The notes beneath the pieces were generated by a model that saw only the letters and a list, made by a program, of their open reading frames with translations, ran no database searches and was not told where the DNA came from. Shown piece by piece: positions 551 through 60,314 of a stretch of DNA of 64,000 nucleotides. Both the position numbers and the translations under genes were made by a program. Origin of the DNA: Yuukianura sp. NJ FZ-2021 (lineage: Eukaryota). Location of the stretch: the NCBI GenBank assembly GCA_046563655.1, contig CM102288.1:3348001-3412000 (forward strand). The letters run 5' to 3'. The stretch's first letter is position 1, and the number at the start of each line of letters is the position of its first letter.

Positions 551-577
551 CGTAAAATCTTAAAAGTGAATTATAAT

Positions 578-5649: not shown

Positions 5650-7478
5650 ATGTCTGGTACTGCAATTTGGAGCGCTGACGTCTTGAGAAGCGTTTTGCAC
5701 GTTGTTACAGAAGAAAGATGGACAAAAGTCATTCTGGACCACTTGATGAAGCAAGAGTACCTGGGTATTGATTGTGAAGGGGTCAATTTGGGTCGCGACG
5801 GTAAAGTCACGCTAGTTCAAGTGGCTACTCCGGTTGGAGACGTTTTCATATTCGACATGTTGCAAAAAACAGTGCACAGTGGAGTACGTACGCTTTTGCA
5901 ATCGAATGTGCTTAAGGTAATAGTTAACTTTTAAATCTTTTAATTCTAAAAACCTCCCACCCCACCATTGTGTTGATTTCAATTCCAGATTATGCACGGC
6001 TGTAGAGGAGATGTGGCGAATTTATTTGTCGAGCACGGGATACTTTGTCAACAAGTGGTAGATACGCAGTGGGCTCAACTTCAAATCGATTCTACACAAA
6101 ACCAAAATGGAAAACAATTGAAACCAGGATTGAACGAGCTCAATGCAAAGTATGGTGTTCCAACAAATCCATTGAAAGGGAAAATTGATGTAAGTACAAT
6201 TAAAAAAATCTATTATCGTTACCTCACTGAAGCGTGATATTTTTTTCTGTAGTATGCAAAAAATCCACGATACTGGGAGACCAGACCACTAACTCAAGAT
6301 ATGAAGCACTATGCAGCAAGTGATGTCATTTCGTTGGTGAAGTTGTACCCTCTTCTGAAATCAAGAATTGCCCAACCAAAAGAATTCCTGGAAACATGTA
6401 CTGCCAAGATCCGGGAAATAATCTTTACCTCCGTATCCCCGAACAACGTGAAACCGGCTAACTCCGTATCCCCGACCAGCGTGAAACCGGCTAACTCCGA
6501 ATCCTCGACTAACGTGAAACCGGCTGCTGTAATCTTTAACTCCGGTTCCCCGAAGAATGTGGAACCAGCTGCTGTAATAGATATGGGGTCGCTGCTGATG
6601 AAAACAATGATTGTGAGGAACAAGAGTGATTCTCAACAAGTGACTGCCTACATTTTAAAACAGAGGTATATCGCAGTCGATGTAAAAACCGTTCAAACTG
6701 ATGGTGACTACGACAAATTGAGACTGTTTCAAGTTGGGACCGAGGCTGGCCAAGTTTATGTTTTTGACATGACATCTACAATCGTTCTCGACTACATTAA
6801 AAGTTTCATGGAAAACAGTGGTGTGACAAAGGTAATATAAATATATTTGTGACAATGGCAATATTTGATTCACACTGTTACATTCTTGTTTTGATTGTAA
6901 TTCACTCAATCAGGGTGTTTTATTTTTTCGTGTTAGGTGATGCATGATTGCAGAGATGCAGTATCCAGTCTGTACTCCTATTACGGTATGAGGGTTAACC
7001 AAATTTTTGACACACAATTGGCTCAACGCGTTATCACTTCCGCCAAACCGGGGGCCGCTAACCATAACATTGGTTTGGATGAATTGTGCAAAGCTTACGG
7101 CATACCAAGCAATCCATACCGGAACGAGGTATTATTAAAAAAGTTAAGTATTTCTCTTGATTGGTGATTGGCAAATTAACTCCTAACCACTCTTGCGTTC
7201 ATAAGGCATTCAACTGGTCCCAACGGCCGATTACACAAGGAATGGAAAACCTTGTCGTATATGACGTTTATGCAATTTTGAAACTGTACGCGCGACTGCT
7301 GAAGAACGTGAATATCGATCATGTAAAGTCCAGATCGCATAATCGTGTAATCCAACTGCAAAAGGTTGTAGACGACGACAACTCCAATTGTGAGAGTAAT
7401 GCAGAAACGGAAGACGACGTGGAACAATCAAGTGATGACTATGACGCATACCAGCAATACTGGTACAAGAACTATTAA
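5650..7478 (+). CDS. Protein with two tandem EXD1/Egalitarian-like DEDDy 3'-5' exonuclease domains
   Basis: Exons 5650-5916, 5989-6189, 6253-6831, 6937-7128, 7206-7478. Domain 1: LGIDCEGVNLGRDGKVTLVQVAT / KIMHGCRGD / VDTQ / YWETRPLTQDMKHYAASDV. Domain 2: IAVDVKT / KVMHDCRDA / FDTQ / WSQRPITQGMENLVVYDV. Probable non-coding 5' exon ending at ~5509 (AAAG|GTAAGT). Confidence 0.85.
6427..6579 (+). repeat. Coding 33-bp (11-aa) tandem repeat in the inter-domain linker
   Basis: SVSPNNVKPAN SVSPTSVKPAN SESSTNVKPAA ... SGSPKNVEPAA; DNA unit TCCG.ATCC.CGA..A.CGTGAAACCGGCT. Confidence 0.85.
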
Positions 7479-7979: not shown

Positions 7980-23466
<15,487 letters not shown>

Positions 23467-33082: not shown

Positions 33083-35008
33083 GGAACACCTATGATCCAA
33101 ATCAGCCCAACTAAAACAATCAGCGATCCTCCTGAGAATGTAGAGCCTATTGTTATTGTGTTGTTTCTCTCCTCTTTTGTTTGTATTTCGAGGTGCCATT
33201 CTCCAGGTATTGATTTCACTTTTGCCAAAAACTGTAACCATTTTGGCGCTGGATCGAAATGGATCTCTGCATGGTGTCCCATCCAGAAATTGTCCATCCT
33301 TGATTTGATATTTTTGATGTAGGGAAAGTAGGGCTGTAGAAAGTAAGCCACAGCAGCGTCTCATCACTTGCGATGAAATATTTGACCAAGTCACGAACCG
33401 ACAAGTGACATCAACCCGTGCGAACCAATTTCAAGTCACATTATCAAAACATTTTATCAGGCTGAAGTGACCACCGATTTCAGTTCAGTTTTAGCAGCGG
33501 ATTGGCTGACCAACCAACATTCAGCGTTCAATTTAAAGCAAAACGCTCAGCTTTTTTAAAACTTTGCAACCAAGTTTTTGATTGCGAATGAACGCACAAT
33601 GAAAACTGAAGTAGCAAACGGTGATCAGGAAGATACATTTTCGTAAGCGGGGTCAAAGGTCACTAGAAAACGTAAGTTTTTCACCATCAAAAAACTTACA
33701 GTAAAAGTACAAAATTTCGTCCAATTTATTTCGACTTTAGTTTTCATTTTAGTACACTCACTCATCAGTTAATTCCTTTTTGTGTCAAAGCAATTTTGAA
33801 TTTTGACCAGGTTAGCTTAGGTAGCTGAGAAATTGTAAATTTAAAATTTTGAAATTTGTAATTACATATCTGACAAATTGAAACTTTAGTATTTTCCGAA
33901 AACTTCAATTTTCAATGTCCAAGCAGAGGAAGGTGTCAGTCAATTACAGACATTTGGACATCCAATTTCCGCCTCATAAATGTATCCTCAAATGTGTCCA
34001 GTAATTTCCTTCCATGTCCAATGTCCAACGTGTCCCACTCACAACTGTCTTTACGTCTGTTTCTGTTTTAGATTTCTTGTGTTAGGGACACTTTGGTTTG
34101 AAATTATTGATGAGACTACTGGATAGATGCAGGAACTATAGTTTTAGTACTACTGTTAGTCCGAAACACGCAAAAGAGTAACGACTTCGTTCGTGTTTAT
34201 TTGTTTCCTAATGGGAATTCAAGTGGAGGCCACCACCATTTAAAGCTCGCCATTCCGGAAATGGAATTTCCAAAAAACGGATTCCCAAAAAGACAAAGAC
34301 GGAGGTGGACACAGGACGGTGACGTGACAGTTGCAAAAAATTTGCACAAGGAGACAAAGGCTGCACGAGGCAAGGAAAAGAATGGAATTCGACATTTTCG
34401 CAAATTAGGGAAATCTAGACCTTTCCCTTACTTTTTTTTTGAGAAAGTAAAGTTCTTTTGTGTGTTGCGGTGCGAACTTTGCAAAAATGAAGAGAAAAGT
34501 TTGTGCATAATTCAACGCAAGTTCGATCACTTTCTTTTAGAATTTGGAGGGTGAAGGATACGAACCCATAATTTTTTCATTTCAAAAAGTTACGAAAAAT
34601 CGACAATTGCTTGAAAATTTGGGTAGGTGTGGCCTTAAGCTGATGAAATTGAAAAATATTTTTGAAAAGTACAAGTTATATTTGAATTTAAATTCTATTT
34701 GAACCTGGCTAGAAATTGACGAGGACAAAGTTGACAAGTTGTCGAGTGAGGAGTGATGCTAGTGAAACCTGATCAATTATGTATTGGTAGGCAGAGGTTT
34801 GACTCAATTCACGCAACTCTGTTTGACCAAATTTTGAAAAAGTAGTCGAGCATTTGCAACTTTCTCCCAGTGACGCTCCAGACCTTGTCCAGTGTCCACG
34901 GTGTCCGATTTTGAAAAAAAAAAAACGTCATCTGTCCAAAGTCCTCTAATTTTCGAATTTCAAAATTTTGACTTTCTAATGCCTCCAGGCTTTTCTGGTG
35001 CTGGAACC

Positions 35009-38000
35009 ATGTACAGTCAAAACAATAACCGAATCATTACCAAATACTCGGAGTTTTTGAAGGAGCAGGAAGTCATAACACCAGCCTTTGAGCCACCAAC
35101 TGTTGACGCCACTGCCGGCAGTGGGACTCGTCCCACCACACCCACCAAACACGTAATTGAAATCACCCGATTTTACTCTTTTGAAGGTGAAAGTGACTCG
35201 GGTAGAGAAAGTACGCCAGCACATACTGCTTCTACCGTGACTGTAACGAGTGCCCAAGTGCATAACATTGACAGTGAAGCTGAAAGTGGGGTTGACCAAT
35301 CGTCGGATTCCATGATGACTCTACTCCCTCCAGAACATTTTTCAAGCAGTAAATTCTCCGATTTGTTCAACAGTTCGCAAAGTCATGCGCTTCATCAGCG
35401 TGACCTTTTGATTCAGTCTGAAGATGGAAGCTTTCTGCGAGATGCTAGAAATGACCACAAAGTATTCCATAGTGACGAGGTCAACAGGCCTTTGGAGGTC
35501 ATTCCAGAAAACTTTCTGCATGACCTTGACCTTGAGGGGACAAATGACCTCAGTGCCAAACCTGCCGACAAATCTCCAACCAGAAGTCAGTATTTCAAAG
35601 GAAAAGGAGATCGCGCTGATGCTGGATCCCTGGGGCAGTTCTACACTGGCTCAATCGCTTCTTCCTCATTGGCCGAAGCAGAAGTGACGCTCAGAAGAGA
35701 ACTGCTCAGCAACATCAGAGCCATTTCAAAAGCAACTTTCTTTGAGAACTTGTACACGGACCATGGCGAAGTTGGAGGTAGTGCTGGCAGTATCAGTAGT
35801 GACACCAATAACAATCCCAATTCGGCAGCACATCACCAAGAACTAGAAGCGTTGTTAAGACTAGCCAACGACTCTCCGCACCACTCTGTTGTTGTAGCAG
35901 AGTCGGACAAAGACGGCCTTTTAGTTTTTGAGGAACAGAAATCTCCGAAGCATCAAAAAACTGACGATACTGCTGAAGTTGAGGATCCACCGCCTCCTCA
36001 TGTGTCCCTTGACCCCGACAAAGAAACGTCCATAACCCAATGGATCTTGAATTCGCAACATGAGTCTGATGCTGAACCGGCAGTTGATGAAATGTTGCCA
36101 GAGGTCACGTACAGGTCACCTGAGTACAAACTTGAACCAACAATGGGTGACATATTGCCAGAGGTCACTTACAGGTCACCAGAGTACGAACCGGACAAAG
36201 CTGAAGATCCACCACAGGCATCGCCTACAGAAGAAGCTAAAGAGGCTGACATTCATGTTGTCTCAATTGGTTCAAATTCGGCTCCAAATGCAACTCCGCT
36301 CCAGGATCTTGTCCAGCCCATGGAAACTGCAAAAGATTCTGAAGAGTTGGCCAATCAAGAAGCACAAGTGACTAACGAATCAGAATCAGTACCTGCCAAT
36401 GCGCAGACGCAAGAACCAATTGACGACAAAACTCACGACGAAATGTCAGACAACGCCACGGCTGAAGGTAGCACTAGCAGCAGCGGAGAGTCCGATACTG
36501 GCAGCATCGGAGCTGGACAGTTTACCCCCTTGTTCAGCCGAGTTCACATTGAAAGTGACACAAAAGATAAGCGCGATCGCTTGCCTCTTTCGCATGCCCC
36601 GGGTCACTTGACACCTTCAACCATTCTAACACTCCCGGGAGCTCTAAATAGCGTGTCCATCACAGTTCTCAATCCTTTGAATATTAAACAGGTTCGGTAT
36701 CCCGCTGTTCTTCCGAAACGACTCTCTCCGATTTACCCCGAAGATGAACGAGACAGCAGGAATCGACGTGGATTTGGCGGAAATGTACCTGGAGTTCTAC
36801 GGAGACAAAACATGGATCAGTGGGTGGCCAAAATTGTTCGGTTTTATATCAATGGGGATGAGCATTTACCGAGATTCGAGTATCGGTTCCGTCCTGGACG
36901 GGATGTCCATAACTTCGATGGCCTCTGTGACATTTTGTCTGAGCGACTCAAGTTACCCCGTGGAGTAAGATACATCTTTACTCTGCATGGTGACCCGATT
37001 GAGACGCTGGATGATCTCAGACATGAACATGCTTATGTGGTGTCGTCAATTAAAAAATTCAAGGTAAATTATCATGTTAACTGTCATGATTTTTCTAAAA
37101 TTTTCCTCATTTTTTGAGAAATGGCAACTTACATCACCCCTGTTGTGCACTGACGCATGTTTTACTAGATAGATGTCAAAAAAACGTGACATGTTCTTGA
37201 ACACTGCAGTAGTCAGGAAAGTTAAACTCGAAAATTTTCAAAAAGAAAAAAAAAGTTCAAACAGATTTTTGAAAACTAGATTTCCTATTAAAAATAGACA
37301 TAATTTAGCATAGAGAAGCAGAAAAGACAGTTCTGGGAAGACAAATTAGTTAATTAGCACTTTTTTCCCTAAAGTCTCGTCAACATAAACAGACAAGAAT
37401 TATAATAATTTGCACAAGAGATTAACTAAATTTCGTAGTAAAGAAAACGACGTTCTCGAGAAGTAACCTGTTTACAATTTTTTTGTGACGCACACCAGTA
37501 GTTAGTTACCTGCCTCAAGCGTTACACGAGAAGAGTCAGAAAATGTTTGCAAAAAAAATTGTGAAATGTTGACTTGCTCGTGATGTTTGCCAAAAAAACT
37601 GAACCTGAAATGATCTCCTCCCCAAAAACAATTTTTTCGCTTCACGAAATTAAAATTCTACGAACGTTATAAATTGTGCAATTTTTACAACCAGTTTGCC
37701 AGTCTCAAAGTGGCAACGTTATCAAAGAGTTGAGCTAGTTTGCAAGTTTGCAAAAATTCTCAGCTTAGCAAACATTTTACAAGGCCACTGTTTCGCTAAA
37801 GATGCTAACCAAACTGTATTCACTTTTGAAGGCCTTGAACTACGGTGGCGAAGTTGTCGAAACTGGAACAGGAGAAGGAAACGGCAAAGGTACTTGTGCT
37901 AGTAGCAAGCGCCGAAGTCGCAGTAGACCACCATCGGCTCCATCCAATAGAAAGCCACCAATCATAAGAGTCCGAAGAGAAAGGTCACTCAATGGGGTCG

Positions 38001-40196: not shown

Positions 40197-42966
40197 TCAG
40201 GAAACAGCGGAATCTTCGACTGTGTCAGGAATCTCCATGTGCTCTTCAGTGGGTGGTTTGCTTGTACTTGCAGCAGCACCGCCTTTGGTGAACACATAGA
40301 TTGGTCGCTGAAAGCCTTTGGAGTGGTGAGCTGGGATTCCAACTAAGTTAACAGATGAGAAGCCCACTTCCTTCAAAAGAAAGGCTTCAAAATCCTTCGG
40401 GAAGAATTTGATACTTTGAAAAGTTTTGAAAATTTCCTCCTGCAAGTAACAAAAAAAAACATTTAGTTAATTCCGTTTAAATCGAGCTACTTATATAAGG
40501 TCAGTTAAAGTGTAGATTCTTACGGTCAATTTCTTTTTCTTGCGATACGATGTCCATGGTTGTGGCTCCAGAACAAAGACTCCTCCAGGTCGCAGATTCA
40601 AAAATGCTCGACGAAAAAATCGCTTCAGCCCGTCATCTCCGAAGTTGAGGTGCACCCACTTCGTAGTGCTGAGACAAACGATGCAGTCGTACTGCGGTTT
40701 CACGGTTGACAGCAATTCGTCATCTTCCATAACGTAATTTTCCTAAAATTCAAAAGAAATATTAAAAGTTTAGAAAATCTTGTCATGAAAAGTTAGAAAA
40801 AAAGTGAAATTGTAAAAAAAAAAATTGTAGTCATACTTGTCGAAAACCAACGTTGTACGGAAACAGAATCCTCTTGCGTTCTCCTTGGCTGCCACTAGTC
40901 GACGTCGGCGTAGCACTCGGTCCTCCATACTCCGGTGTTTTCCCCATGGCCGCTTCCAACTGTGGAGGTTGAAGACTTCCATGTACGATTGAAAGGGCGA
41001 GAGGAAACTTTATACTCACATCGTTTGGATCTCGATCCACGTAATGCTTCACGTTCTTCTTCGCCACCTTGATCAAGTATCCGTCAATGTCAATTCCCAG
41101 GATCCGGCGTGGTCCAAAGTCTCGTCCTAGGCAGAGTGTCACATGTCCAACGTTACATCCTATGTCCAGTACATCCTTTCCTTCGATCCATTCTCTTTTG
41201 AATGCTCTCAGTCGAGCATCCTCTGCTTGTCCAGCATTTCGATACCCATAGTACTGGTTGTAATTCCCAAAACGAAAAATCTTGTCCTTCGTATGAAATT
41301 TATGAAGTGTCTTGCCCTCTACTGGCTTCGTCTGCTTGTTGTCACTTTCCTTCTTCTCTTCGGCAACTTTCGGTTGCTGTGGATGGTGCTGATGTTGTTT
41401 CTTGTGATGATGTCGGAGATGTGCATGTGAAGCCCATGGTCGTTTTCCAGTAGTGAGATTCGGGAAAACCGGACTCACAATTGGATCAAGTCGATTCCGA
41501 TACCTTCGGTTGAACATCGCTTGCTGCTGGACAGAAGGTTCAGGAGGAAGTTGTCTACGCTGAATTTCGTTTCTTGGAGGGGTGCATCCAAGACCGTAGT
41601 GTCCAGAAGGGACGCGATGCTCAATCATGACATCCATGGGACGAGGCGGAGGTGAAAATGGTTCTGTAATTGTGAACGTGTCCTGTGTACCCATGTAGTT
41701 ACTCATTGAAGGTGACTCGAAGGGCAAAACCGTAAAATTCTCGTTCATGGTATCTAGAACAAACGGTGAAGGTTGATAATGAGACGACAAAGGAATATAA
41801 TCGCTGGAAACACGAAATGGATATGATGTACTCGGCTCCCTTTCAACTGCAACAACTTCTTTCTCTGTTGGAGCGACATCAGAAGACGTTGTCATTTCCT
41901 CTTTTTCCTGAGCTTGTGAACTTGAACTTTCTCGAACTTGACCCTTGTCGCCAATGCCATCCTCTGAGATGCCACCAGTCGCTTGTGGTTGGATTTCTGA
42001 ATGTTGCTGAATGGGAATCGCATCAACCTCATCATCGTCTCGTAGTTCCTTGATATGATTTTCTGCAATAACTGCCGCAGCTACTTTTTCAACGTCTTCG
42101 TCAGAACCGGCAGATTCCACGCTGCACTCGCTTTCATTTCTCTTCCTCAAGCTCCTTCTGCGATGACGACGTCTCTTATGCGGGTGTGGTTGTGGTTGGG
42201 TTTCGGTCGGAGTGACCGACAAAATGCCTTCGATTACATCCCTGGTATTCTCTACGTCATCTTCTGACAACAAGCGCAACGGATCATGATAATTTTTAGG
42301 AATCATAATTGGAATTTCACCCGAGTTGTGCGAAGAAGGAAATGGCATTGGTGACGTTTTTGGTGTTACGGCATTATCCGAATCTCCGAGACCGTTCAAG
42401 TTCAATGGATCGTGTGCATTTCCACCCAAAAGAAACTTCAGCGGTGTTTTATGGACTCCGCCACCTCCAGGTCCGGATGGACAAGAAATATGTCTTCTAA
42501 TAAACATTCGTCTTGACTTGTACGGTGGCATATAATTCCCATCATTCCCACCTCCATGTACTGATTTCTTACGCTTTCGAAAACTTTTCCTCCTTCCTCC
42601 ATTGCCGCCTACACAATAAGGACACCAATTTCGATAAAAACGACGTCTCCTAACCCTACCATTTTTAACAACTTTCTCGTTCTTACCCAGTAATTGGTCC
42701 TGCAAATCTTCTTCGCTCTCTTCCTGGCCTCCTGACCCTAGTTCGTGCGTCACTTTCTCAAATGCAATTGTTGGCATCCTGACAACACTTTTAGCAATTT
42801 CCAGTGCCGCTGATGCTGCTGTGGAAGTACTGGCAGCTCTTGGCGACTCACCTCCTCCAAAGTTCTGCTGATGAAGTGGTGAAGGCGAAGGGGATGAAAC
42901 CACAACAACGTCTCCCATCCTAGTCATATGATTTCGATTTCCAGCTGAATTTGATTTTCCCTCCAT
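40197..42966 (-). CDS. MEPCE: 7SK snRNA methylphosphate capping enzyme (MEPCE / Bicoid-interacting protein 3)
   Basis: Exons 42966-40837, 40742-40524, 40439-40197. [38 protein letters not shown] (SAM-binding motif I); [53 protein letters not shown]. Confidence 0.95.
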
Positions 42967-44293
42967 CCACCCTCCCCCTTCCAAGTTCCTGGGGGTTCGA
43001 GTCAGCTGACTTTTATATTTTTAGAATAAAGGTCACACAAATTAAGGAATTTAAGGGCCTACAATGACCCGTGTGCCTTGACACGGGGAAAAAAGTGGTA
43101 GAGGACGTTGACCTGCGTATGTTGAGATGATACTGGAGAGGGTAAAGGTCACTGGGTCACCAAATGGTTCTACTTCCTTAGCTTAGGGAGTGTCCTATCC
43201 CATGGACTGCTTAGCCCATAATAAAGGCACTTCTTTTCTTCTGTTTGTATCTCCATTTTTTGCATTTGAAAAAAAAGCGAAGGCAGAGGCAGAGGCACAA
43301 TAAAACAGAAATTCCACATTGCACTCGCCTCAACCATGGTTTGCGTGTAACATGCAACAGAAAAACTTGCCATATTTTTTTCAACACTGTAATTAGTAAA
43401 AGTGATGTACAAAATTATATGATAAGTTGGTTTAAGTACGTTTAAGATGCGTTATTGTAACCAGACAGTGTACCACACAATAATGGGTTGCTACGCTATG
43501 ATGTTACAATGGCTACGCTGTGCGGCTATGTACTATGTTGCTACTTTTGGTTAGATTAAAATGGCTACAAATGTTGCCACCAAGGTGTGGCCACCTGTTA
43601 CAGCAACACTAGATGACCGTTATTTCTGTACTAGGTGGATCACCAATAAACCTTGCCTCAACCGAGAAGTTTATGTTCAGAGTTGTTTTTAAATCGAAAC
43701 CCTAAATTTGTGCACTAGAGTAAACAAAGTGCGGAATAGAATTATTCAAAAGTGTAAAAACAAGGAAGACGACGCTCTTGAGGCTTTCTTATCAACATGG
43801 AACGATTTTTTTTAATGAAAAATTGGTTTTTATATATAAATTATTAAATTAATTCAGCATATTATTACCTTGCTGTCCGTACGTTTCATACAGGTTTGCT
43901 TAACCTGAAATTATTAATTTTTCATACAGCTTCGAGAAACTCTCAAAATTAGACAAAATTTTGAAAGTGCATTGTTTGGAAACTTTTTGCACCAAATTAC
44001 GTAAAATGGGCAAAAGGTTGCAACTTTCTGCAAAAATTATAAATCTTTAAAACGGTCACATTTTGGATGTGATTTTTTTCTATTTTTTTGCAAAAATTTT
44101 TGCATCAATTTAAGCGAAAAGATGTTTTGAAACTTGGGTCGAGCGATGCAATGACAACAGTCGCTGCTGCAAGCTTGAAATTTCTAGAATTTTCTAAAAT
44201 TGAAATTGTGTGTGTGTTTTTCGAAGTTTTTGAAGAAGAGCCTTTTTTTTTTTACATGGGAGGCCTTTGAAAAATGAAAAAAGTAGACAGGGT

Positions 44294-45816: not shown

Positions 45817-46860
45817 TTATTGTGATCCAGTAGAAAGAAGAGCCAGAAGACCGCCGGACAAGCTGACAGAGAGGACGTAGTTTCTGTTGACCAAAGAAAA
45901 AATCAAAATGAAGTCATTAAATGAGCACAGTGTTAAATTAGTTCAAAGATCGCTTACACCGTGGGTGAGAATGATTTGAGGATATAAAAGCTGCAGAAGA
46001 TGATCAGAGCCAGAAACAAAGCGTTGTTGTAGAATATGGAGAAGGTCGTAGCTTCGTAGTCTGCAACTTCATTCTTCTTCCAGAGAATACTGGAAAAATA
46101 AACATTCATTTGAACCAACACAATCATGATTTCACTTCATAAAATCAATGCTGAATACTGCTATTGCTGTGCTACGATCTTACCGTTCATCCTTCTCTTT
46201 CTTGCTCATCTTCTTGTCTTCTGAAAGACGTTTGTTCATGTCTTCCGTTACAGCCGCTTCACGCTTCACTGCCACCTGAAACAAAAAGATTCACCAATGC
46301 GTATTAAGCCTACCGTTGGACAAAGTTCCATAAAGTCTTCTAACCATTCATGTACTAAAGCCCAACGTTGTATAAGTATAACTAAGTTAAGTACGTGACA
46401 AACTGAAGCTCTAATTTAGCTTTGATAATGTAAACTAGGCACGAGTTCAACTAATCTGCCCCTATTACCACTAACACAGCGACATTCAATATTTGAATCA
46501 TAAAGTGAGCCCAACTTACCTTATGCTTGAGTGAGAACTTTGTATTTTTGTAAGCAAAAGCCATGAGCCAAGTGGCGGCAAGGGTCACCAGAAGGAAGAT
46601 CGGTGATGCTGTGATGATATCCATCAGATGGATTCTCCAGAACAACCCTATAGTAATCAAAGAAACAATTTACATCATAACAGCTGATCCATCGATACAT
46701 TTATCACTTGATTATCATTTGGTAACTTACAGATCGGGATTGCTGAAACGATGAAGGCATTTCCGTAGAAGAGTGCATTGGATTTTGTAGAAACGTTGCG
46801 ACTGAAGTCTTGGAGCAGTAGTTCTTCCTCCCTTGTAAACTGTTTCGACTTGGCTGACAT
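45817..46860 (-). CDS. SSR3: Translocon-associated protein subunit gamma (TRAP-gamma)
   Basis: Five exons. [94 protein letters not shown]; ends [22 protein letters not shown] (TAA at 45819-45817). Confidence 0.96.
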
Positions 46861-47512
46861 GTTGTTATTTCGGTCCTTGTGAACTAATCACTTAAGTGCT
46901 GTAACTAAATCAATTAAAATCTTCTCACAACTCCTTGGTGTATCTTCCCTACCGGTCTGTCTCTCCACCTTGTATGAAATATGCAAAAGGTGGAATCTGT
47001 AAATTGACAACACCGTATTTTGAGCCTTCCCACTTGGAAAGTGTTGATGAGCTGGCACCGAGTTGGCTTCCCTTGCCTCCTTGTGAACATCAAAAGTACA
47101 GAGCATTTCACACAAAACTCATTGCATGATTTGTAGCGCATTGCATTTGCAAATCGAAATCATAATGATTAACAGCAAGCACTCCAAAATAAATCAAAGT
47201 TAGCATAAGTTTTAGCAAATTTTCTACAAAGCAGGCCGAACAGTTAAGCAACTAAAACTTCGAATTTGAAGAGAAATGGACCTCGATTAGGAAAATCTGC
47301 AACCAATTGTAAGATCTACAAAAAGCAGTGGCTGCAGAAGCAGAAAAGCAGTAAACTCAAGATCATGTTATTAATTAAGCAATAGAATTATAGAGAAAAT
47401 TAGGAAAAACTAATTAGTACCTTAGCCATCTAGTGTTTGAAGTTTCACTACATTCGCTTCTAGCCAATGCATCCAGCGTTGAGTAAGTTCGAGTACATCC
47501 AAAATGCTGCCG

Positions 47513-50500
47513 TTAGTCTTTCGGCGGTGCTTCGTTAAATATATGACGAAAGTCCGGATCATTCAGTATATGCTGATGTCTTCCGTGCATAAAGTGTTCG
47601 ACGTAAAATTGCCAACGTGGGTAGTACTTCGCAATTAGAAGAATTTTCCTACACACATTTACACAAAAATTCAAACTTATTTTCGTCCTGCACAAATATT
47701 GATAGTATTTTTTAAAAATATTAAAAACTATAACACTTACGCCTGCGACAGAACCAGAATTTGAGTAAACGTTTCAGCTCGGTAGGATTTTGCATAGTTT
47801 GAGCCATAGAAGAAGGCCGCTGCTTTTCCAAAAGCCTGCCAATTTAGAACATGATTCCAAAAATGTTTTTAAAATTTCTTAAATTTTGGTTTTTACGTCT
47901 CCGTGTTTATATTTTTTGAGAAAGTCAGTTCCTCCTTTGTCGTTTCGTTCATAGGCAGCTACTTCTCCGCTGTGAATAATGAACAGTTTGTTTCCAGGTT
48001 CTCCTTCACAGGCCACAAATTGACCAGGCAGAAACATCGAATGCTTGAAAAGGCAAGCCACGTTGCGAATAAACGTCAGTTCCCCAATCGTTCCAAACAT
48101 TTGACACCTCTGAATAGTTTTGCAGAATAGAACGGAAGAGACGTCCAATCGCATTGACTTTGGTAGAAATTGCAACGTTTCATGAATCGGAACACCGCGA
48201 CACTGCAACAAAGTTTCACTTTAGCTTCACTTTTGCAATTTTAAAATAGCATTGTTTACCTGGTGCCACATCGTCAAATAGTATGCTCTGACGTAAGCTT
48301 CCAAGGTCCAGGAAAGTCCAATACTTTTAAGATGGTTCTTCAAAAAAACGCTTAGGTTAAGGTCATTAGGTCATGAAAACTTAAAATTGTATTGAGTATT
48401 ACCGTCATGAGGAGAACATTGTAGAAGTAGACACGACGCTCTTGGGACAGTGATGTGAGGCCAACAGCAATATTTGCAATAACAACGCTTACACCCAGTG
48501 TGCCAACGAACATTGCAATAACCGTTAGAAGGTAAGTCTAAAAAATTTGAAAATTTAACTTCTTCCAGATTTCATTACTTTTAGTAAAATCAAAAAAGAC
48601 TTTACGTTCAAAACATGTGGAACAATGTCTTCTCCCAAGCCAGTGGTAGTGACCGTCACAAACGCAAAGTACAATGACCTCAAATACCTTCAACAAAAAT
48701 TTTGAATTTTTTAAATTGAAATTTGAAAGCTCTTATACAAGAACTTTCCGGAGTTGATTCAACGACATACCAGGAAAAAGTGTAGTCTGAAACCTCGTCT
48801 CCGGGTTCAATAAACATTTCACCTAAAAGTAAAAAAACATTGAGCAAAATTTTAGACTTCAACATCAATTTTCCAAAGTTGTTTTTCGATTTACGGTAAA
48901 TGATGATCCAAGTCTTATGTCTTGGTGATTCCGGAGTGATGAAAGCGAGATGGAAAAAGAGGCAAGCGACAACATGTCCAAAAAGTAGAAAAAGACTTCC
49001 ATAAAATTTCAGTCTTGACGCAAATATTGACATCTCAACGTCGTCTTTTTGACCTTTCGATAAGTGACGGTAAAGGTAAATCTAAAGTCGAAAACAAAAG
49101 AAAACCTTGAATTATCGATGAATTTTCATGAACTTTTGAAATTTTGAAACTCACCATTCTGAAATACAGAAGTGTCACAAGGGCTGGGTGGATCAAATAC
49201 CAAGGAATAACAGTCAAAACGTCAAGCACAAACAAGTTGAGATCGGTGAAATAACTGCAAAGCAGAAACGGTTTTTCAAAAATAATGTTGTGTAATTTCC
49301 AAACTTGGATTACTTACTTGATCATAATTTTTGTCCACACTTTGCAGTAAGTTTCCGGTTCGTATAGTTCGAAAGGCGTAATCCAATGCAAAATCATATC
49401 GATGACAAAAATGATCTGGCAGATTATGATGCTGGCGATAACCCAGGATCGTACTGTCAAATCTGTCCCAATAATCGGTTGTGGTCCAAGGACAATGAAG
49501 ATGACCCAGTACAGGGCAAGTCCTGGATAAAAGAAACTGGCCAACAGACATATTTTTTCAAATACTCGTTGCACTGGACATTTTGGATGGATGAGGAACT
49601 TGAATTTCTTGGGGCGACTAGAAAAAATTAGCCAAAACACAACATTATAAATCCATTCATGCGTTAATAGTGTTTAGTTAAGCTTACTCTGTAGCCATGT
49701 AGAGAACTGGAAGGTCGCTGTCATGGATTCCAGAACCATAAAGCGGACGCCCACAGCGATGTGTCTTCCCTTCCTTCTTCACTCGTTGTGCAATTCCCTC
49801 CAGAGACCGTGGATTCCGCCGTATTAAGGATCGTAGCAACCGTGTTGTCTCTTTGGCAGTCTTGGTGTACTCTGGATCTTCTTCCTCTTCCGGTCTAAGT
49901 CAAATTCAACTTTAGAATAATCCTTAAATTCAATTTTGAGCCTTTTTGAAAGTAGGGAATACCGAATCTTGCTCTCGTGAATGTCATTGAGACTGTCTTT
50001 CAACATCTCCAGCATCTTCCCCCTCACTTTTGGATAGTAGCGGACCAGTTTATTGAAATTTCGGAGACTGAGCACAAGCACTTCAACATTGGTAGCTGCG
50101 ACGATGGCGTGTTTCCGAGGAAGTTCAAAGAGGAGATCCGTTTCGCCAAAAAATCTAACAAGTTTTTCCATTTTTAAAAGAAAACTTTTTAAATTAAAAA
50201 ATTAGAGTAAATGTATTGACTCACTCTCCAGCCCGAATCGTACACAACCACTGTACGCTACTGTTACAGACATATGCAGAGCCCCTGATCAGAATACAAA
50301 ACTCAAATTGGAGATTTCCAATTCGAGCAAGATGGGATCCTTTGAGGAAAACGACTTTCTCGAACACTGTTCAAACAATCACAAAATTTGAAAAAATGCT
50401 TCGTTCCAAAATAGTTAGTTGTGCAACTTACAGTTGAACATGAATCGCATAGCAGGTTCAGAGAGGTCTTGAAATAGGGGAATGCCGTCGAGCGAGTCAC

Positions 50501-53500
50501 CGACAAAGTGTTTGAACAGATCGTGTGACAGCGCTAGTTGAACCAAAGAAAAAGTGTATTTGAAGCAAATCACATTCATATTCTTTGTCGACTATTCTTA
50601 CAGGGGTGCAAGTCGCCAAAAAGTTGCTTCGGCTGCAATCCTCGGCTCTAAAATTGTGAAAAATGAAAATAAAACTCAAATCTCCACTTTTTACACAACC
50701 AAAACCGAAAAAAAAGCTTACCATTAGCCAAGTGTAGTTCAAATAGTCAGAGACAGGTCTGCAGCCAAAACACAAAATTAAAAAACCGAAAGTCAGAAAA
50801 TAGCAAACATTTTAAATTCAATTTTGATTTTACTTGATCCATTTCTCTCCGCGGTTTTCGTCCACATAACGCAGCAAATGCAAGACACGGGACTTGTGTT
50901 CAACGAAGTCTGCCCTCAACTCGTCGCTGTCAACCTCAGCCGCAGTTACTGAAGTTGGTCAAAATTAACTACAATTCAGCATGTCTAGTCAATTTCATAA
51001 ACTAAAAGTTTAACTTACTGTCAGAAGCGACGTACACAAGTAACAGCACACCTTGAAATGGAAAACAACAATTCAAATTCCATCAACAAGCACACAGTAA
51101 AAACAGCATTTTCAAAATTTTTTCGAACCAAACAAGGTCATGATCAACACAAAGATGAGTTCATCCTGGGCATGCAACGGCGTCAGATCTCCAAATCCCA
51201 CACAAAACAAGACTTGGATGGAATAGTACAGTCCAATTACTAGCCGAGTGAAGATTGAATAGAAAGTCAAGTCTGAGACAAAAATTAAAAATGAAAAATC
51301 ACCACATTTTTCAAAACAAACTGGAAAAAAGTTTCCAACATTGCGCTAGTATCACCTGGCACAAGCGCTTTTATCCATCCATTGAAGCAGTAGGGCAGTC
51401 GATACTCGTCTCCATCTCTCCAATCATGCTGACCCAACGGACATCCAATTTCAATAGCAATCGTTGCAAAGATGATGCTCACTGACACTGTGAGGATAGC
51501 GTAGAAAGCGATGCTAGAAGCAAAAAGTTATCGAAAATTATCGAACTTGGGATAAAAGCTTAATTTTATCCAGAACTTACAAGTTAGTAAGGCGTCTTGT
51601 GGATGAGTTTCTGACCAAGCCGAAGAGGGCTAAAAACCGATAGATTTGCAGAAAGCGAATCCATCGTAACTTGGAGTACCACGAGGCATGCAGTCCGTAA
51701 CCAAAAAATGCCGTGAATCCTCCACCATAGAAGAAAAGCATCATCAGGGAACTGACCAATTCCGCTGGAGTGGAAAAAATGGCGTCGTAGAGGAACATTC
51801 CTTCTTTGACGTAACGGGCAGAGGTCATAGCTGGATGTGAGATGAGAGACTTGTTCTTTGTGTAGTATGCCCAGTGCAGCTTCAGGTAGCTATAAAATTA
51901 TAAAAAAGTATAAACTATAAATCATAAATATAGATATAAGTATAAATTATAAAATACAAACTACAGTTATATATATAATATATAAAAGTAAATATATAAA
52001 AGTTTTAATATAATCTTACATGTCCATCCAAGAGATGATATCCAGCACAAGGTTGATGAATCTCACAAATGGAGTTCGGTAGCCCATGAACAGCTAAAAG
52101 GACGCAAAATTTAGCGACTTAAAAACAATATGTATGTATGGTTCACTTTTTTCTAAAATGTTGATTTTTACTTCGATAAACAGTGTCAGAATGATTCCCA
52201 ATACTCCTAAGCTGGAGAACACAGTCCAGGCTTTGGCAAATGTACCGCATGGGTGGACCGTCTTTGACATGAGCAGCAACCTTTAGATGCCAAAAGCACT
52301 TAACAGTTAACTTAATGTCACAATTAATTTAAACACTAAAACTTCATAAAAATTGATTTTTTCTTACTTGAACAGACACTTGCAACGCACGGTTTCCCAA
52401 ATCGCTTTGTTCTCTTCATAAGTGCAGTGCGGGAAACTTTCGCCCTCTGACTTTGGAAACTCCATCCACGACGGTGTCACTACTGGAATATCCGTCGACT
52501 CCTCGTCATCCCCAATAGCATTCCGCCGTTCCATAGCTTCTGGATCGGCACGTCTCACGTGAGCCTGCGTTAAATTTCAAAATTTTCGCCAATTACGTTC
52601 AAAATTTCAAAATTCAGGTTAATTTTATTAAACTAACCTTTTCGTCTTGGATAATGCTATGAATCGCTGATGCTTCCTCTTTGCTCAAACTGTCTTTGAG
52701 ACAAGGTTGGTCAATCACAAAAAGATGAACGTAGCTTAGCGTTTTGACGTCAAATCTTGCCGGTTCCGAGAATAGGAGATCGCGTATTCCAAAGTGCGCC
52801 GTTGGACCGAGTATTGTTTCATACTTTTCTTCCGGAGCTGCATATGTGCTACTCATCCTTGGTCTCCGGCCAATCGAACTTCTCCTACTCCTACGGCCAG
52901 AGCTAGTCGAACTTGGCTTTTTCTTTACTGGTGGCGGATACAACTAATGCACAGAAAATAATTCAGCACCAATGGTTTATACTTGCCATTTATTGTTTGA
53001 AGTACTTACTCCCACATATCCATTGACGATGACGTACATCTCATGTCGAATTTCTCCAGCTCTCTGGAAAGTTATTCCAGGCGGAAGCACATACCTTCCC
53101 ATATTATTGACAACATTTAGAAAAACGGAATCATCCGCGCTCTGAAAACCAAAAAAAAAATCAGTTTGTGTTACGAATTCGCAACATAATGCCCAAAAAT
53201 TCAGTAATTTTGCTTACCGTAAACAATGGAATTCCTTGGAGGTAAATACGGTACTCAATGTCGACAATATTTTGAAAAAGGTGGTGCGGAGCGTCGTACA
53301 GGAGAACATGTTCATCCGAAGGAAGTTTTACACCTACAAAGTCAAAAAAATATGTTAGGGAGGTCACAATTCAAAAAATTTTGAGAAATTGAAAATATTG
53401 GTTTCGAAAACTTGCCTTTCGTGAATGCAAACTGCAGTTTGTAGTGTTCGTAGATTCGATCAAAGAGAATTTCATTGACGTCGTAATGTTTTAAACATTG

Positions 53501-56500
53501 AGTTATTCCTTGAAAACGTTGTTGAAATCGCAGCATCGGTAGAACGGAACATGAAATACTACTGGCAAGTTCAGTCAGCAGCAGTACCAGCAGAAACAGT
53601 CCAATAACTTCCAGACAAGAAATGATTATCAACTCATTGAACGTTTGGGCACAAAACTCCGTGTATCCAGCCGAAGTGAGGAGAGATGTCGCAAAATAGA
53701 CTGGGTACAAGTACGGCCCTTCCATTTTGATTGCTGTCCCCAAGTAGTCTACCGTTTGAAATCCAATTGTAATTGAATCGATCCAACTGATTCGGATATT
53801 TGTGGTCATCCAGTACAGGAAACAGGCAGTATAATGGATTCCATACACCAGAGTTGTTATCGTTTTCAAACAGCGGATGAACAGGAGATGAAGTGGATGA
53901 AGATTGGCCAGCAGTATAAAGTATCTCCATACTTTTACAAATTGAATGATAACGACGATTGCCACGATAAGAAATGGATTTCGGAGGGAGATGTCGTAAC
54001 TGGCGTAACTTTCTTGTGGAATGACCAAGGCTATCGCACAGCCCAAGTCCAAGTAGAATCCCAAGGCGTGAATTCTTATGAACAGCCCGTCTTTCAAACA
54101 GAACCAGAAACCTGTAAAACGAAAAACGATTTCACTTTTGTTCATTTTTGAAAAAAGAATCATGTTTTTCAAAAATTGTGGTAAAAATTGACCTGATGAA
54201 GGAGACGCAATGATAACTTCCAGAATGACCATGACGACAATTCCAACTGGAATTACATAGTCAATGACGTAGTAGTCAGCCAGTGACTGACAAATGCTTA
54301 GATCCAGTTCATTTGTTGTCAAGTCCTGATGAAATGCTGCACATGCTGGAAAAACTGCTCCGAGAATCAAAATAACGACGACCACGAATATGTTGTAGAA
54401 TCTTGTCCAGGACGTTTCCGAAAAAAAGATGATCGGCACTGGACATGAGCGGTATGGCCGAGTATAATCCTACAAGGACGATAATCAAACACTAATTCAA
54501 TTAATTAACTAAATCAAGTTTTTAAAAAGTTTGATTCTTTACTCTCGTGTGTTCTCCAGCATAGGTAGGCATGGTCATAATGTAAGTATTGGCAGAGTCA
54601 TCAGTAACATCGTCTCGTCTTGTGTGAATGAAGACTTTTCTGCAACAAAAAGTAAAAAAAAAAATGTCCAATATGTTTTGAAATGCCGAAAATATTTCAG
54701 AAACAAAAAACCGGGACAAACCTTCTCATAGTGTATCTTGGATTTTTGGACTGCCGGTCCTCTTTACGCACAGCATACTGGAACGGATACGTGCCAATAA
54801 ACTCGTAGTCTCTTGACAGTTTTTCAGTTAATCTCTGAATCAAACATGAAATTTTTAGAAACACTTTCAAAAAATCCATTGAAATTGAAAAACTAAGAAC
54901 GTTCTTACCCCAAACTTTTCTCGAAGAACTTGAACAAGATGCGGAAAAAGCTCGAGTAGTTGAAAAAGCGATTCGCTGCTAATCACCAGTGCTTGACAAA
55001 CGTACTGAAAATACAGAAAAATTACAGTTTTTTTTAAAGAATTTATCAAATTGAGCAACGTTGGTTATTTTTTTGAAAGTACTAAAGCATAAACGTATAA
55101 AGCTTACTTTAGTTTCGATTTGATGGTCATATGGAATTGAGAAGAGGAGGTTAATCTCTCCAATTATACAACCAGGACGAAGAAGTGCTGAAATGTGCTG
55201 CATATTTGTCTTGCTGCGGACAATCAGTTCTCCTTGAAGTAGGAAAAACATGTTACTGCACCTTGTTACAGGAGAACAAAGAATGTAGCCTGGATTGTAG
55301 ATGACCAATTCCGATTTCTGGGCCAAAGCAGTTAGAAACGATGATTCAAGGTCGTAGAAGAACAAACTCTTTTCGAATATTTCTTGACAAATGTTGATCC
55401 TGTTTAAAATTAAAATACACTAAGATTAGTAAAATACACTAAAATTGAAGGTCTGTTCGTGAATCATTTTTTCAGTGTTAATCCAAAGGCGTACATGATT
55501 GATTCGTGCATTGGTCCTGGAAGAGCATTGAGGTCTTTTTCCTTCACACCTTGACGAAAATTCCAAAAGAAGAGGTAGTATTCCTATAAAATTTTGAAAA
55601 AAAACAACATCAGAATTTCAAAATTACGGAGATCAAAAAGCATCGTTGTGAACGTTGACTTACATTGATCCTATGTATGAAATAGTGTGGACATGATGTT
55701 TTCTGAAAATATGACAATATATACTTGAATTTTATCACTATTTTTACTCGTTTTCTTTAAATACTTACGTAAAGGTTTTCTGCAAAATCGAGACGGTGGA
55801 ACAATTCGTAGCTGGCCGAATCATGTTCAATGCAGAAATCCAGCATATGGCTTGCCAAATGGCCATTTATCAGGATTGACGCGAAGATGATGAGTATGAC
55901 AATCACAAATTCCCAATTTGTGAGCGGAATCGTTCCAAATTTTCTAAAAAGCAAGACAAAAAAATTTGCAAACCGTGTTTGGATAAAATCGGAGATTACG
56001 GTTTCTGTTATGTGTTACCCGGTTGTTGTTAGAATCGTAACGACAAAATCCATTGTAAGAAAAAACAAGTCCTGAGCTGTTGGCAGTTGATGCATCAATT
56101 CTTTGTCAAGAAACAACGCTCGACGTCGTCGGAACGTCAAGTAGCAACTGGTGTTACGATCATCAACGAGGAACGGACCTTTGAGCAGAAGCCATTCCAA
56201 GTACGACTGAAAAAACAACATCAATTAACCAAAAATTGTTAACAAATAAGTTCTGCAAAACCTTACACCACTGCACTCCGCAAACAGCCAAGCTGAAAAC
56301 AGTTCGCAGCAGATGATGTAGTAGAAGAGCAGCTTGAAGAGATGTACAAACTTGTTGTTGAAGGTGTTGTCCTCATTGAGTTTGGCTAAATTCAAAAGAA
56401 TAATCTTATACTTCATACATTTATGTAAATTAGGCAATAGATCGCACTTACAAAAGTAGCTCTCGAGGCGATACAGTGAGAAGAGTTTGAACAAGTAGAA

Positions 56501-57225
56501 AATTTGAACAGTTGCTACCCAGTCCAGTGCGTCTGGGACGGCAAGATTGCAAATCATGTGGCTCAGGTCCACTATCGGTAGAAGCACTAACAGATCGAAG
56601 ACGAATTGAGCAAAAGTGTACTGAACCTTGAAGACGAGGTAGATCGTCGCAAAATGTCCTCGTAGAATTTCAATTATAAGTCGGAGCAGCACGTCGGCTC
56701 CGTAGACGAAACTGAGGAAGATCGTAATATCTTCAACTAGCGGATCGGCAAATGAAAATACGGTGTGAAAAATGGCCAAGACACATGTCAGAATAATGAC
56801 CAAGCAAATGAAGAATTCCCACAAGAAGCAGAAGAGTTCCAGAAAGGGAATGTAGAAGTGTGTGATGGAAACAATCTTGTGGTGGTATTCAGGAGCATCG
56901 TGGATTCTCAAGTACTCGGCCCTTAGTTCTCGAAGCTGCTTGTCTCCAATCTCAGCCTGCTCCGCTGAAGCTGCACCTTCAGCAGCATTTTCCGCTGTGT
57001 CTTCTCCTTCCTCTGCTTCTGGTTCTTCAGTTGGTTCAGTTTCGCCATCATCTGCTTGCCTTTGTTTAGTTCTGTCACTTAATTGCTTCCCCCTTAAGTT
57101 AAAGAATCGATTAACTCAATTGATCAATTCCTAAGTGATCCTTGTAAAGCAGTGTCGTACTTTATGAAAGCTTGAACGTGGCTTCCATGCGCTCGCCTCT
57201 TCTCTTGCCATGCTTCTGTCGGCAT
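47513..57225 (-). CDS. Single-chain cyclic-nucleotide-gated channel-like protein with four concatenated [S1-S6 + C-linker + CNBD] repeats (CNGK / tetraKCNG architecture)
   Basis: More than 30 short GT-AG introns; the junctions checked, including all three inter-repeat linkers, stay in frame. Repeat I ~56900-54910 (pore TILTTTG(K)FG, CNBD IGEINLLFSIPY); II ~54440-52640 (pore SLLTSAGYTE, CNBD HFGIRDLLFSEPA); III ~52280-49970 (pore QVLFCVGFGDL, CNBD FFGETDLLFELPRK); IV ~49620-47513 (pore VTVTTTGLGED, CNBD AFGKAAAFFY). Probable ATG at 57225. Confidence 0.85.
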
Positions 57226-58206: not shown

Positions 58207-60314
58207 TCAGTAGCGAAGAAATGGTTTTGACTTGGCCATGAATCTAGAAATACCACAAATTCTTCAATTTCTCTACTCTCTTTGTCTTAAAATCCAAATA
58301 ACTTGGTACTTACGCGTCCAACTTTTCCCAAAACGTCATAAGAGCCGCTCGATCTAGATGTCTCTTCGTTCTGGACAGTTGGATGACATGTACTGCCCAC
58401 TTGGCCACGTTCGAGTCCAACTTCATTTCGTCATACTTCAAATGAAAAGCGGAGACTACAAAAAAGAGAATATTTTTTAACATTTTGCAATTGCTTGCGT
58501 AACTTTAGCTTACTTTTTGAAAAGATCTCCACTGGATTTCCATCATAGGGGTACCCTTTGAACTGCCATGCTGGACCCATAACGAAAACTGCCACAACTC
58601 GTTCCCAATCCTGTGGACTGAGTTTGAGTGGATTGTCAATTATACGATACGGAACAGAGACGCCGTTTCGTTGACGATGGATCAAGATTTCATTGTCTCT
58701 CCTTAGCCCTTGAGCCTTCTTTTCTTCCGTGGGAACAAACTTGAGATCTTGCAGGAGCTCCTTGACGTTGTACATGGTGACTAGAGATGTATTCGCTCCA
58801 GGGATAATGATAATCGGTGTTTTGGAAACACGCTTGTTCGAGGGCGGTGTAATAGGACTTTTTCCAGGAGTCTATAAAAATTAATAGAGTATCAAACCAG
58901 TCAAGGTCAAAAGGTCATAGACACTGTTATGTCATTTGTGTCAAATTCTTACTGCCACAACAGCAGGAGTATAAGGGGAGGCTGCTGGTGTGAACGGCTT
59001 CTTCGGTGTGTTTGCTTCCGTTACAGATTTCAAAGTCATACCATGGTAAGTACCCAGTGTGTCAATTTTAAATCCCTCCGTTTCTAAAAAATTGAACACA
59101 TAAAGTTCACTTTGTGAGAAGGTACGCTTTGCAAGTCATGAATTTTGACACTTGACGTTACCTTCGTGCGACTTGAACCTATCCTGTTCGTATCGATTGT
59201 AAACTTGTGTCTGAGGGATTTGTCTCACAGGAGCTGGACCCCTGGGAGTCGTTAAGGACGGAGCAGCAACGGGCGGACGCAAAGGCTTTCCCTCTTCACG
59301 ACTCTTGACAGCATTTAGTATAGCCATGATACTTTTTGTAAATTGTTTTCCATTCGTTAGCAGAATGGTCGACCGTGTTCTCCATTGTCTCTCTCTTGAA
59401 ACAATGTCCTTGGTCACATCCAAATCATAGTCAAGAATTGTTCGTAAGTCGGAACCCATCTCGATGTCATCATGCCCTTTGATTGTTGTTCGTTTCTTGG
59501 AAAGTCGCTTGGCCTTGATTTCAGCAATTTTCTCAACAGACATTGCATCAGAGAGAGATCTAAGACAAAAGGAAATTAAGGAAACCGAATTGCTACAATT
59601 GAAATTGAAAATTAGAATTTACTTGGTAATGTTGTTGATAGAAACAGGAGCTTCTCTGGGAGCATCCAGTCTCGCCGCAAGGACATCTTTGACGCGTTGT
59701 AGTTGCGTATCTTCAAATCTAGGTTTCTTCGCTAAGGATTCCGCTGGTTCTTCAGCAGTTCGCTTCACTTGTGTCGGAATTTCAAGCGGAGCTGACTTAT
59801 CGATGCTATTTGATGTTGTGCTCTCTCCTTTCAGATAGGCCAAAATATCCTTTCGATCTGGACGTGTCACCACCGGAATATTCTCGGCCTAGACAAAGTG
59901 ATAAGAACACAAAACAATCCACATCATCAGTTTCTTCCAGCACAAAAAATCATGAACTCCGTCGAGGTTACTGACTGCAGCACGCCGAACGTAGACAGGA
60001 TGGCTCAACTGGATATTCTTCAACAAAAATACGAGACATTCAAGTGTGTAGTAGTCCTTTGGGGCACCGTCCTTCCCAGATCTAGACGATTACATGACAA
60101 AAGACTTTAGATTCAAAGATTCGATCAATTTGTGACTTTAAAAATTAAAATAAAGTAAAAATTACAAATTTTATGAACCTTACCCATAGACCATGTAATT
60201 AGTTTTGACATTTTTACGCCACGCAAATTCGCCAATGACAATATTTTCATCTTTTTCCACAGCCGATTTACCAGCTATCGTGTACTGACGAAGAATTGAA
60301 AGTGGATCAGCCAT
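58207..60314 (-). CDS. CDC73: Parafibromin / Hyrax, PAF1 complex subunit
   Basis: [11 protein letters not shown]...[24 protein letters not shown]...[71 protein letters not shown]; ends [11 protein letters not shown] (TGA at 58209-58207). Confidence 0.96.

Follow-up and report, generated by a model that had tools for sequence, protein, structure and literature searches.

A predicted four-unit CNGK-type channel gene with strongly diverged repeats in an arthropod genome

A channel gene on the minus strand

The stretch of DNA analysed here (hereafter the window) comprises 64,000 nucleotides (nt) of the Yuukianura sp. NJ FZ-2021 assembly GCA_046563655.1 (contig CM102288.1, positions 3,348,001 to 3,412,000) and holds, between a parafibromin/CDC73 gene and a gene for translocon-associated protein gamma (TRAP-gamma), a predicted channel gene. 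The encoded polypeptide is predicted to contain four tandem units, each made up of six transmembrane helices (6TM), a pore, a C-linker and a domain for binding cyclic nucleotides (CNBD). The locus is probably a single intact protein-coding gene, from a hexapod that is most likely a springtail, and encodes an ortholog of the CNGK (tetraKCNG) channels known from the sperm of sea urchins, ascidians and fish, with an inherited four-unit form. The gene occupies the minus strand from 57225 down to 47513, the location proposed in an earlier interpretation made without database searches (the sequence-only reading), and the model of 2,307 amino acids (aa) agrees with the length of approximately 2,300 aa given there.

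Between 47.5 and 57.2 kb, the stop-to-stop frames of the minus strand form a string of coding pieces resembling channel and CNBD sequences. Exons were joined from the three minus-strand frames using donor/acceptor pair scores and three-frame displays, with the best homolog serving as a guide for unclear splice pairs; exons 5-7 were picked with an HCN sequence as a visual guide, and their junctions were later checked against a profile of CNGK units. The spliced frame of 6,924 nt, built from coordinates, contains no internal stop (Table 1), and its 37 introns span 57-130 nt (median 73), 36 of them with GT-AG and one with GC-AG boundaries. Compared with the CNGK-unit profile, 23 of the 37 splice junctions fall in gap-free runs, nine adjoin indels or inserts and five lie outside the units, in linkers or the N-terminus. 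The linker junctions named in the sequence-only reading were all reproduced exactly, namely REKFG/RLTEK (exons 8 and 9), HTR/DYTRPYRS (10 and 11), QDEK/AHVRR (14 and 15), CLFK/LLLMSK (15 and 16), SKIR/PEEEED (27 and 28) and MATD/RPKKFKF (28 and 29).

Exon 1 is the least certain exon of the model. Its proposed start codon, an ATG at 57225, was taken from splice signals, exon 1 being chosen because exon 2 offers no Met before model residue 201; other in-frame ATGs lie upstream at approximately 57318 and 57294. Several candidate splice forms were tried and rejected elsewhere in the gene. At 55617-55429, a frame-1 exon gave way to two exons, one of 39 nt and one in frame 2, which restored a continuous C-linker, both junctions being gap-free against the profile. 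Donor 52147 gave the wrong frame against the homolog from the springtail Allacma fusca, and donors 53518 and 53497 would have cost the protein its C-linker, whilst the GC donor at 53415 agrees with phase and homology. Splicing that skips the Ser/Arg-rich stretch in CNBD II was also rejected, as no acceptor that combines a compatible phase with a pyrimidine tract was found.

Four channel units in one predicted polypeptide

The profile was built from 50 CNGK repeat units of 13 other proteins, with the window protein left out, and has 458 positions. Its match to the model has an E value of 3e-229 and resolves into four units, each with 6TM, pore, C-linker and CNBD. Unit I covered profile positions 7-132 (E 4e-8) plus 116-443 (E 2e-36) and unit II positions 5-65, 115-379 and 384-433, interrupted by inserts; unit III covered positions 2-453 (E 2e-80) and unit IV positions 2-451 (E 3e-70). 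No match at E<=10 came from controls in which the sequence was reversed or, in five versions, shuffled, and by hydropathy the transmembrane helices of the model form four clusters. Fewer than four units in a profile search would have spoken against the single-chain architecture put forward in the sequence-only reading; four complete units were recovered, and together with the open frame and the junctions lying in profile runs they support that architecture in silico. Across the exon 10/11 junction, which leads from the first linker into unit II, Allacma residues 60-83 and then 84 onward align with the model.

The fold of a single unit was considered for exon 11 (1,054 nt, 54469-53416, 351 aa), which carries the membrane domain of unit II and the start of its C-linker. 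This exon had no Pfam match even at E<=10. Its Atlas features point to Ion_trans clusters (score 0.95; family set common to 26 of 30 matches), and its sequence matches in the PDB were GORK, KAT1, SKOR, AKT1, hERG and SthK (best E 4e-5). An AlphaFold2 model from a 15-row alignment reached a mean pLDDT of 65 and a pTM of 0.59, and a Foldseek search with it returned CNGA3/CNGB3, CNGA1, hERG, AKT1 and KAT1 (84 matches at E<=1e-3, TM approximately 0.58 over approximately 340 columns). Because confidence in the model is moderate, it supports the fold class and nothing finer. The membrane domain of unit II is thus assigned, at the level of predicted fold, to the CNBD-channel superfamily of CNG, HCN and KCNH type.

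Each unit resembles, in fold and sequence family, the single-unit CNBD channels (CNGA/CNGB, HCN, KCNH/hERG/EAG, plant AKT1/KAT1/GORK/SKOR and bacterial SthK). In those channels four separate subunits assemble, whereas in the window protein the four would be fused and individually specialised. The four-domain channels Nav, Cav and NALCN likewise have 24 membrane helices per chain and four non-identical filter strands, but they lack CNBDs and belong to another clade, and in the available text of PMC6259924 the likeness is one of architecture only.

Relatives and phylogeny of the repeats

An exhaustive phmmer search with exon 11 returned 45 proteins at E<=1e-3, the top ones being 1,650-2,400 aa long and matched in 3-5 stretches. 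Seven of these proteins were scanned with Pfam, and each contained cNMP_binding three to four times and Ion_trans two to four times. Named matches included a Sinocyclocheilus 'Cyclic nucleotide-gated potassium channel' and proteins from Branchiostoma, Anneissia, Tubulanus and Lingula. The best match, and the closest sequence, was an unnamed protein product of Allacma fusca (CAG7731031.1, 1,681 aa; 28% identity, E 4e-24). It is colinear with units II-IV of the window protein, lacks unit I in its database model and keeps GFGD in units II-IV. Window and Allacma proteins share the odd CNBD motifs FGIRDLLF.EP (II), PRKH (III) and Y.KSYRAET (IV). Identity to this closest ortholog is 31-39%, in keeping with the description of the channel as highly divergent. 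A library of 1.8 billion proteins held nothing closer than 28% to exon 11, and the gene of the window species therefore appears to be absent from it as an annotation. A word-index protein search with exon 11, which covers proteins of up to 2,000 residues and so leaves full-length CNGKs beyond its reach, gave no match.

Repeat-by-repeat phylogeny, which the sequence-only reading had put forward as one check on its CNGK-type interpretation, was carried out with quick trees (SH-aLRT support, no bootstrap) in versions of 58 and 74 rows. In the 58-row tree all 14 repeat-II rows formed one clade (84%) and all 14 repeat-III rows another (99%), window unit I fell within the repeat-I set (96%), and window units II, III and IV were each sister to the Allacma repeat at the like position (100%). 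The 74-row tree again paired window and Allacma for units II and III (100%), inside arthropod clades (97-99%) that were nested in the positional CNGK II and III clades (97-98%). Besides window and Allacma, the arthropod clades for II and III comprised Pollicipes (two genes), Plutella, Laodelphax and one Menopon record, so that the arthropod affinity assumed earlier for this DNA is borne out. Hexapod unit IV sequences also form long branches, and their doubtful joins in the 74-row tree were flagged.

For the remaining repeats, holding the repeat-I rows monophyletic raised the likelihood by 82.8 over the free quick tree (p-AU 0.998), and holding the repeat-IV rows monophyletic raised it by 77.9 (p-AU 0.995). 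The placement of unit I depends on this constrained-tree test, which does not reject it. Repeats II and III thus show positional orthology with CNGK repeats by their clades, and repeats I and IV are consistent with it under constraint, which agrees with the CNGK type proposed beforehand. Because of the positional clades for II and III and the higher likelihoods under the constraints on I and IV, the data fit inheritance of the four-unit form from a CNGK ancestor, and nothing in these comparisons supports an independent fusion.

The arthropod homologs, Pollicipes pollicipes XP_037085638.1 and XP_037081197.1, Plutella xylostella CAG9122543.1, Laodelphax striatellus RZF48576.1 and Menopon gallinae KAL0265502.1, are multi-unit CNBD channels known from partial models. 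Although its source marks the Menopon record as a contaminant, the record groups with the two insect proteins. Among the seven arthropod models compared (the window and six from databases), the window model is the only one with all four units.

A metagenome scan with a two-row alignment of exon 18 found one locus (L001), whilst a scan with exon 11 produced 78 pattern matches of which none was confirmed. L001 (positions 1-5078) is a related CNGK-type fragment that runs from S5 of unit II through the linker into unit III, colinear and on one strand, with short introns. Its filters are canonical (TSTGFGD and SIGYGD), and in CNBD II it shares the motif FGIRDLLFGEP with window and Allacma. Over the II-III linker it is 36-38% identical to the window protein, and it represents a third related organism.

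Diverged filters and a single complete phosphate-binding cassette

According to the accessible text of PMC4749565, CNGK pores carry GYG or GFG in all four repeats. The window protein departs from this description: units I and II lack GYG/GFG, and unit IV has GLG with an extra Glu, so that a GxG filter is kept in units III and IV only (Table 1). The profile insert state in the filter of unit I falls exactly at the exon 3/4 junction. In unit II, three relatives, namely Allacma, the fragment P0005 (TSAGFGD) and L001, keep GFGD, and the change there is therefore specific to the window lineage. Filters of single units in other arthropod homologs read GSG, GPG, GTG and AFG. The four units of the window protein are 13-17% identical to one another, compared with 24-39% in the proteins from Anneissia, Branchiostoma and Tubulanus, and the part of PMC6259924 that was available describes CNGKs as four fused, nearly identical (nearly symmetric) domains with no specialisation. 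Charges in S4 are few in units I and II. Given this divergence of the filter strands, the predicted channel should not be taken to be strictly K+-selective.

Of the four CNBDs, only CNBD III keeps both the Gly-Glu pair and the Arg of the phosphate-binding cassette (FGE...PRKH, as in Allacma). CNBD I keeps GE and has Tyr in place of Arg, CNBD II reads FGI..., and CNBD IV reads FGK... and has neither the cassette Glu nor the Arg. Sea urchin ApCNGK is opened by one cGMP bound to its third CNBD (PMC4749565, in the text available), and this matches the pattern in the window protein, in which the full phosphate-binding signature occurs in CNBD III only. Pollicipes proteins keep a canonical PRT cassette in CNBD III. 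The motif FGIRDLLF.EP of CNBD II is common to window, Allacma and L001, and its conservation suggests a role other than ligand binding. CNBD II of the window protein also carries a Ser/Arg/Pro-rich insert, absent from Allacma, whose several RRxS-type motifs may be kinase sites.

Table 1. Positions of the channel gene, its parts and other predicted genes in the window.
Feature	Position	Strand	Remarks
Whole channel gene	47513..57225	minus	38 exons; coding sequence 6,924 nt, 2,307 aa; stop TAA 47515-47513
Exon 1 with proposed ATG	57161..57225	minus	choice explained in the text
Unit I (aa 83-600)	54805..56911	minus	S1-S6, pore, C-linker, CNBD I; very long branch, odd composition
Filter of unit I, TTTGKFGT	55931..56029	minus	crosses exon 3/4 junction; GxG holds an additional residue
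Linker I-II (aa 601-665; exons 9-10)	54455..54804	minus	open, in frame; surrounding introns 74, 82 and 73 nt
Unit II (aa 666-1203)	52544..54454	minus	membrane domain and C-linker start in one exon
Filter of unit II, TSAGYTE	53657..53677	minus	second Gly of GYG replaced
GC-AG intron	53334-53415	minus	82 nt, after exon 11; donor context AAAG/GCAAGT; sole non-GT intron
42-residue Ser/Arg/Pro-rich insert, CNBD II beta-roll	52818..52943	minus	several RRxS-type motifs; absent from Allacma
Linker II-III (aa 1204-1261)	52370..52543	minus	alignable to Allacma and metagenome contig L001
Unit III (aa 1262-1755)	49876..52369	minus	best-conserved unit
Filter of unit III, CVGFGD	51187-51204	minus	canonical
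Phosphate-binding cassette of CNBD III, FGETDLLFELPRKHAIVA	50097..50150	minus	sole cassette of the four with both Gly-Glu and Arg
Linker III-IV (aa 1756-1819)	49614..49875	minus	colinear with Allacma
Unit IV (aa 1820-2307)	47516..49613	minus	profile match 2-451
Filter of unit IV, TTGLGED	48627-48647	minus	GLG plus extra Glu
Parafibromin/CDC73 gene	58431-60100	minus	directly upstream of channel gene
TRAP-gamma gene	46451-46890	minus	directly downstream of channel gene
Dynein heavy chain gene	8000-23300	plus	large, multi-exon
Dynein exon	20061-21380		439 aa
Long single frame, doublecortin domain	34874-37117	plus	747 aa
Long single frame, weak methyltransferase domain	40831-43020	minus	729 aa
Open frame, 3'-5' exonuclease domain	6253-6840	plus	DNA_pol_A_exo1

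Proposed function and alternative explanations

The described CNGKs (the K+-selective sperm CNG channel of Arbacia and Strongylocentrotus, zebrafish DrCNGK and Ciona Ci-tetraKCNG) share with the window protein the four-unit chain and the positional orthology of the repeats, and differ from it in their filters and in the similarity of their repeats. In the proposed mode of action, one chain would fold into a complete channel to which each unit contributes one quarter of the pore. CNBD III would be the main driver of gating, as it is in the sea urchin channel, whilst CNBDs I, II and IV would be structural or regulatory. By analogy with its orthologs only, we infer that the channel most likely acts in the sperm flagellum and would set the membrane potential there. 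Our literature search returned no functional description in arthropods from the texts available, in agreement with the sequence-only reading, and no paper on an arthropod CNGK; uncharacterised homologs are predicted in Allacma, Pollicipes, Plutella, Laodelphax and Menopon.

Several observations weigh against the reading of the gene as an intact CNGK ortholog gated through CNBD III. Unit I, odd in composition, lies on a branch 2.3-2.4 changes per column long, and the 74-row tree joins it to hexapod unit IV, a connection flagged as a long-branch join. Splice signals are what define exon 1 and junctions 8/9 and 9/10, the latter two making the link between units I and II. Pfam Ion_trans was undetected on the raw open reading frame (ORF) pieces and exact exons tried, even at E<=10, so that the fourfold match foreseen by the sequence-only reading came to zero on these separate pieces; one near-threshold match to Ion_trans_2 was seen at 51112-51345. 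The fourfold cNMP_binding match foreseen alongside it was found at four places in a scan of 17 raw ORF pieces, of which two passed the Pfam cut-off of 27.5 bits (54979-55419 in unit I, 28.6 bits; 47879-48220 in unit IV, 30.3 bits) and two fell below it (52614-52943, 18.1 bits; 49824-50201, 22.9 bits). Units I and II no longer show an unbroken GYG/GFG signature, which, with the change in II being lineage-specific, could reflect relaxed constraint. CNBD III has PRKH where PR(T/S)A is usual, and for this reason ligand binding by it is not assured. Finally, because CNBD III in Menopon, Laodelphax and Plutella has lost the Glu and its Arg is not aligned, cyclic-nucleotide gating would not be constant across the arthropod clade.

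These points bear on three competing explanations. The locus might be transcribed as two or more genes, for example with unit I apart from units II-IV, the full-length frame then being an artefact of exon joining. Met codons are present in exon 10, the exon 9/10 junction has no homology support, and none of the six arthropod database models (P0001, P0024, P0007, P0013, P0160 and P0042) contains a unit-I membrane domain. Four of the six, however (the last four named), begin inside CNBD I and continue into unit II, and it therefore seems that annotation has systematically overlooked a highly divergent unit I rather than that the proteins truly have three units. The sequence-only reading had expected annotation pipelines to split the gene into several. 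Every linker exon is open and in phase, the introns around the linkers are 68-87 nt long and so leave no room for a terminator and a promoter between units, L001 and Allacma conserve the linker between units II and III, and the Allacma database model joins units II, III and IV. Separate genes are on this evidence highly improbable. A gene that is in frame but decaying or re-purposed is quite unlikely, though less so; its pore would have lost K+-selective conduction or all conduction, and the protein would persist as a channel without selectivity or as a scaffold or sensor that does not conduct. The non-canonical filters of units I and II, with the lineage-specific change in II, the odd filters of other arthropod homologs, the low identity among repeats compared with three other CNGKs and the few S4 charges in units I and II would all suit it. 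Against it stand an open frame of 6.9 kb over 38 exons with all splice sites intact, which would be unexpected without selection, branch lengths that resemble those of Allacma and so indicate no special acceleration in the window lineage, and the non-canonical CNBD II motif shared by window, Allacma and L001, which points to constraint.

A CNGK-type channel working in somatic cells, sensory or ciliated, rather than in sperm is also unlikely, if somewhat less so than decay. Nothing in this analysis ties the channel to sperm. Springtail sperm transfer is indirect, by spermatophore, and chemotaxis of the sea urchin type may for that reason not apply. The argument on the other side is one of homology only: all the functionally studied members, from sea urchin, zebrafish and Ciona, are sperm flagellar channels (PMC4749565 and PMC8835908, in the text available). 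A single, intact, inherited CNGK gene remains the preferred reading. Going beyond it, we propose as a speculation, itself unlikely, that the arthropod CNGK lineage turned a nearly symmetric K+ channel into a truly asymmetric four-domain channel with four different filters, one working sensor (CNBD III) and three re-purposed CNBDs. If so, its selectivity would no longer be that of a K+ channel, and it would represent another instance, independent of the first, of the step behind asymmetric pores of the Nav/Cav type, observable in a living terrestrial hexapod.

The occurrence of CNGKs is given, in the accessible text of PMC4749565, as marine invertebrates, some fish and a choanoflagellate. Taken together, the window and the partial database models indicate that the family persists in Pancrustacea, terrestrial hexapods included. 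The family itself is well known, and arthropod homologs, insects among them, are already in databases as partial predicted proteins without names; the novelty lies in an arthropod model complete with all four units and in how asymmetric it is. The finding opens no new kind of system. Because of its marked asymmetry, the protein offers a natural test case of the extent to which a fused K+-type pore can change without ceasing to conduct, and of whether gating by a single CNBD is ancestral, and the locus flags a systematic annotation gap, unit I being missing from all six arthropod database models.

Neighbouring genes

Upstream of the channel gene and on the same strand, the parafibromin/CDC73 gene contains an exon whose matches are almost all arthropod, with Orchesella cincta the most identical named match (79% over 60% of the query), followed by Allacma (64%) and insects (approximately 60%). 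Combined with the pairing of window and Allacma repeats in the trees, these matches place the organism among the hexapods, probably the springtails. TRAP-gamma, on the downstream side, was recognised by PF07074 (E 7e-15). The dynein heavy chain gene has Pfam matches to DHC_N2, AAA lid, AAA_7/8/9, MT stalk, Dynein_heavy and Dynein_C. For its 439-aa exon the nearest relatives are heavy chains of the axonemal inner arm (DNAH7 first, at E 3e-134, followed by DNAH12 and DNAH3), with cytoplasmic dynein far removed, and the organism therefore builds motile axonemes. Two long uninterrupted frames stand out from the other genes here, which have many short introns: one ends in a C-terminal doublecortin domain, and the other has a weak methyltransferase domain below the Pfam cut-off. 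A further open frame near the start of the window encodes a 3'-5' exonuclease domain (E 3e-11).

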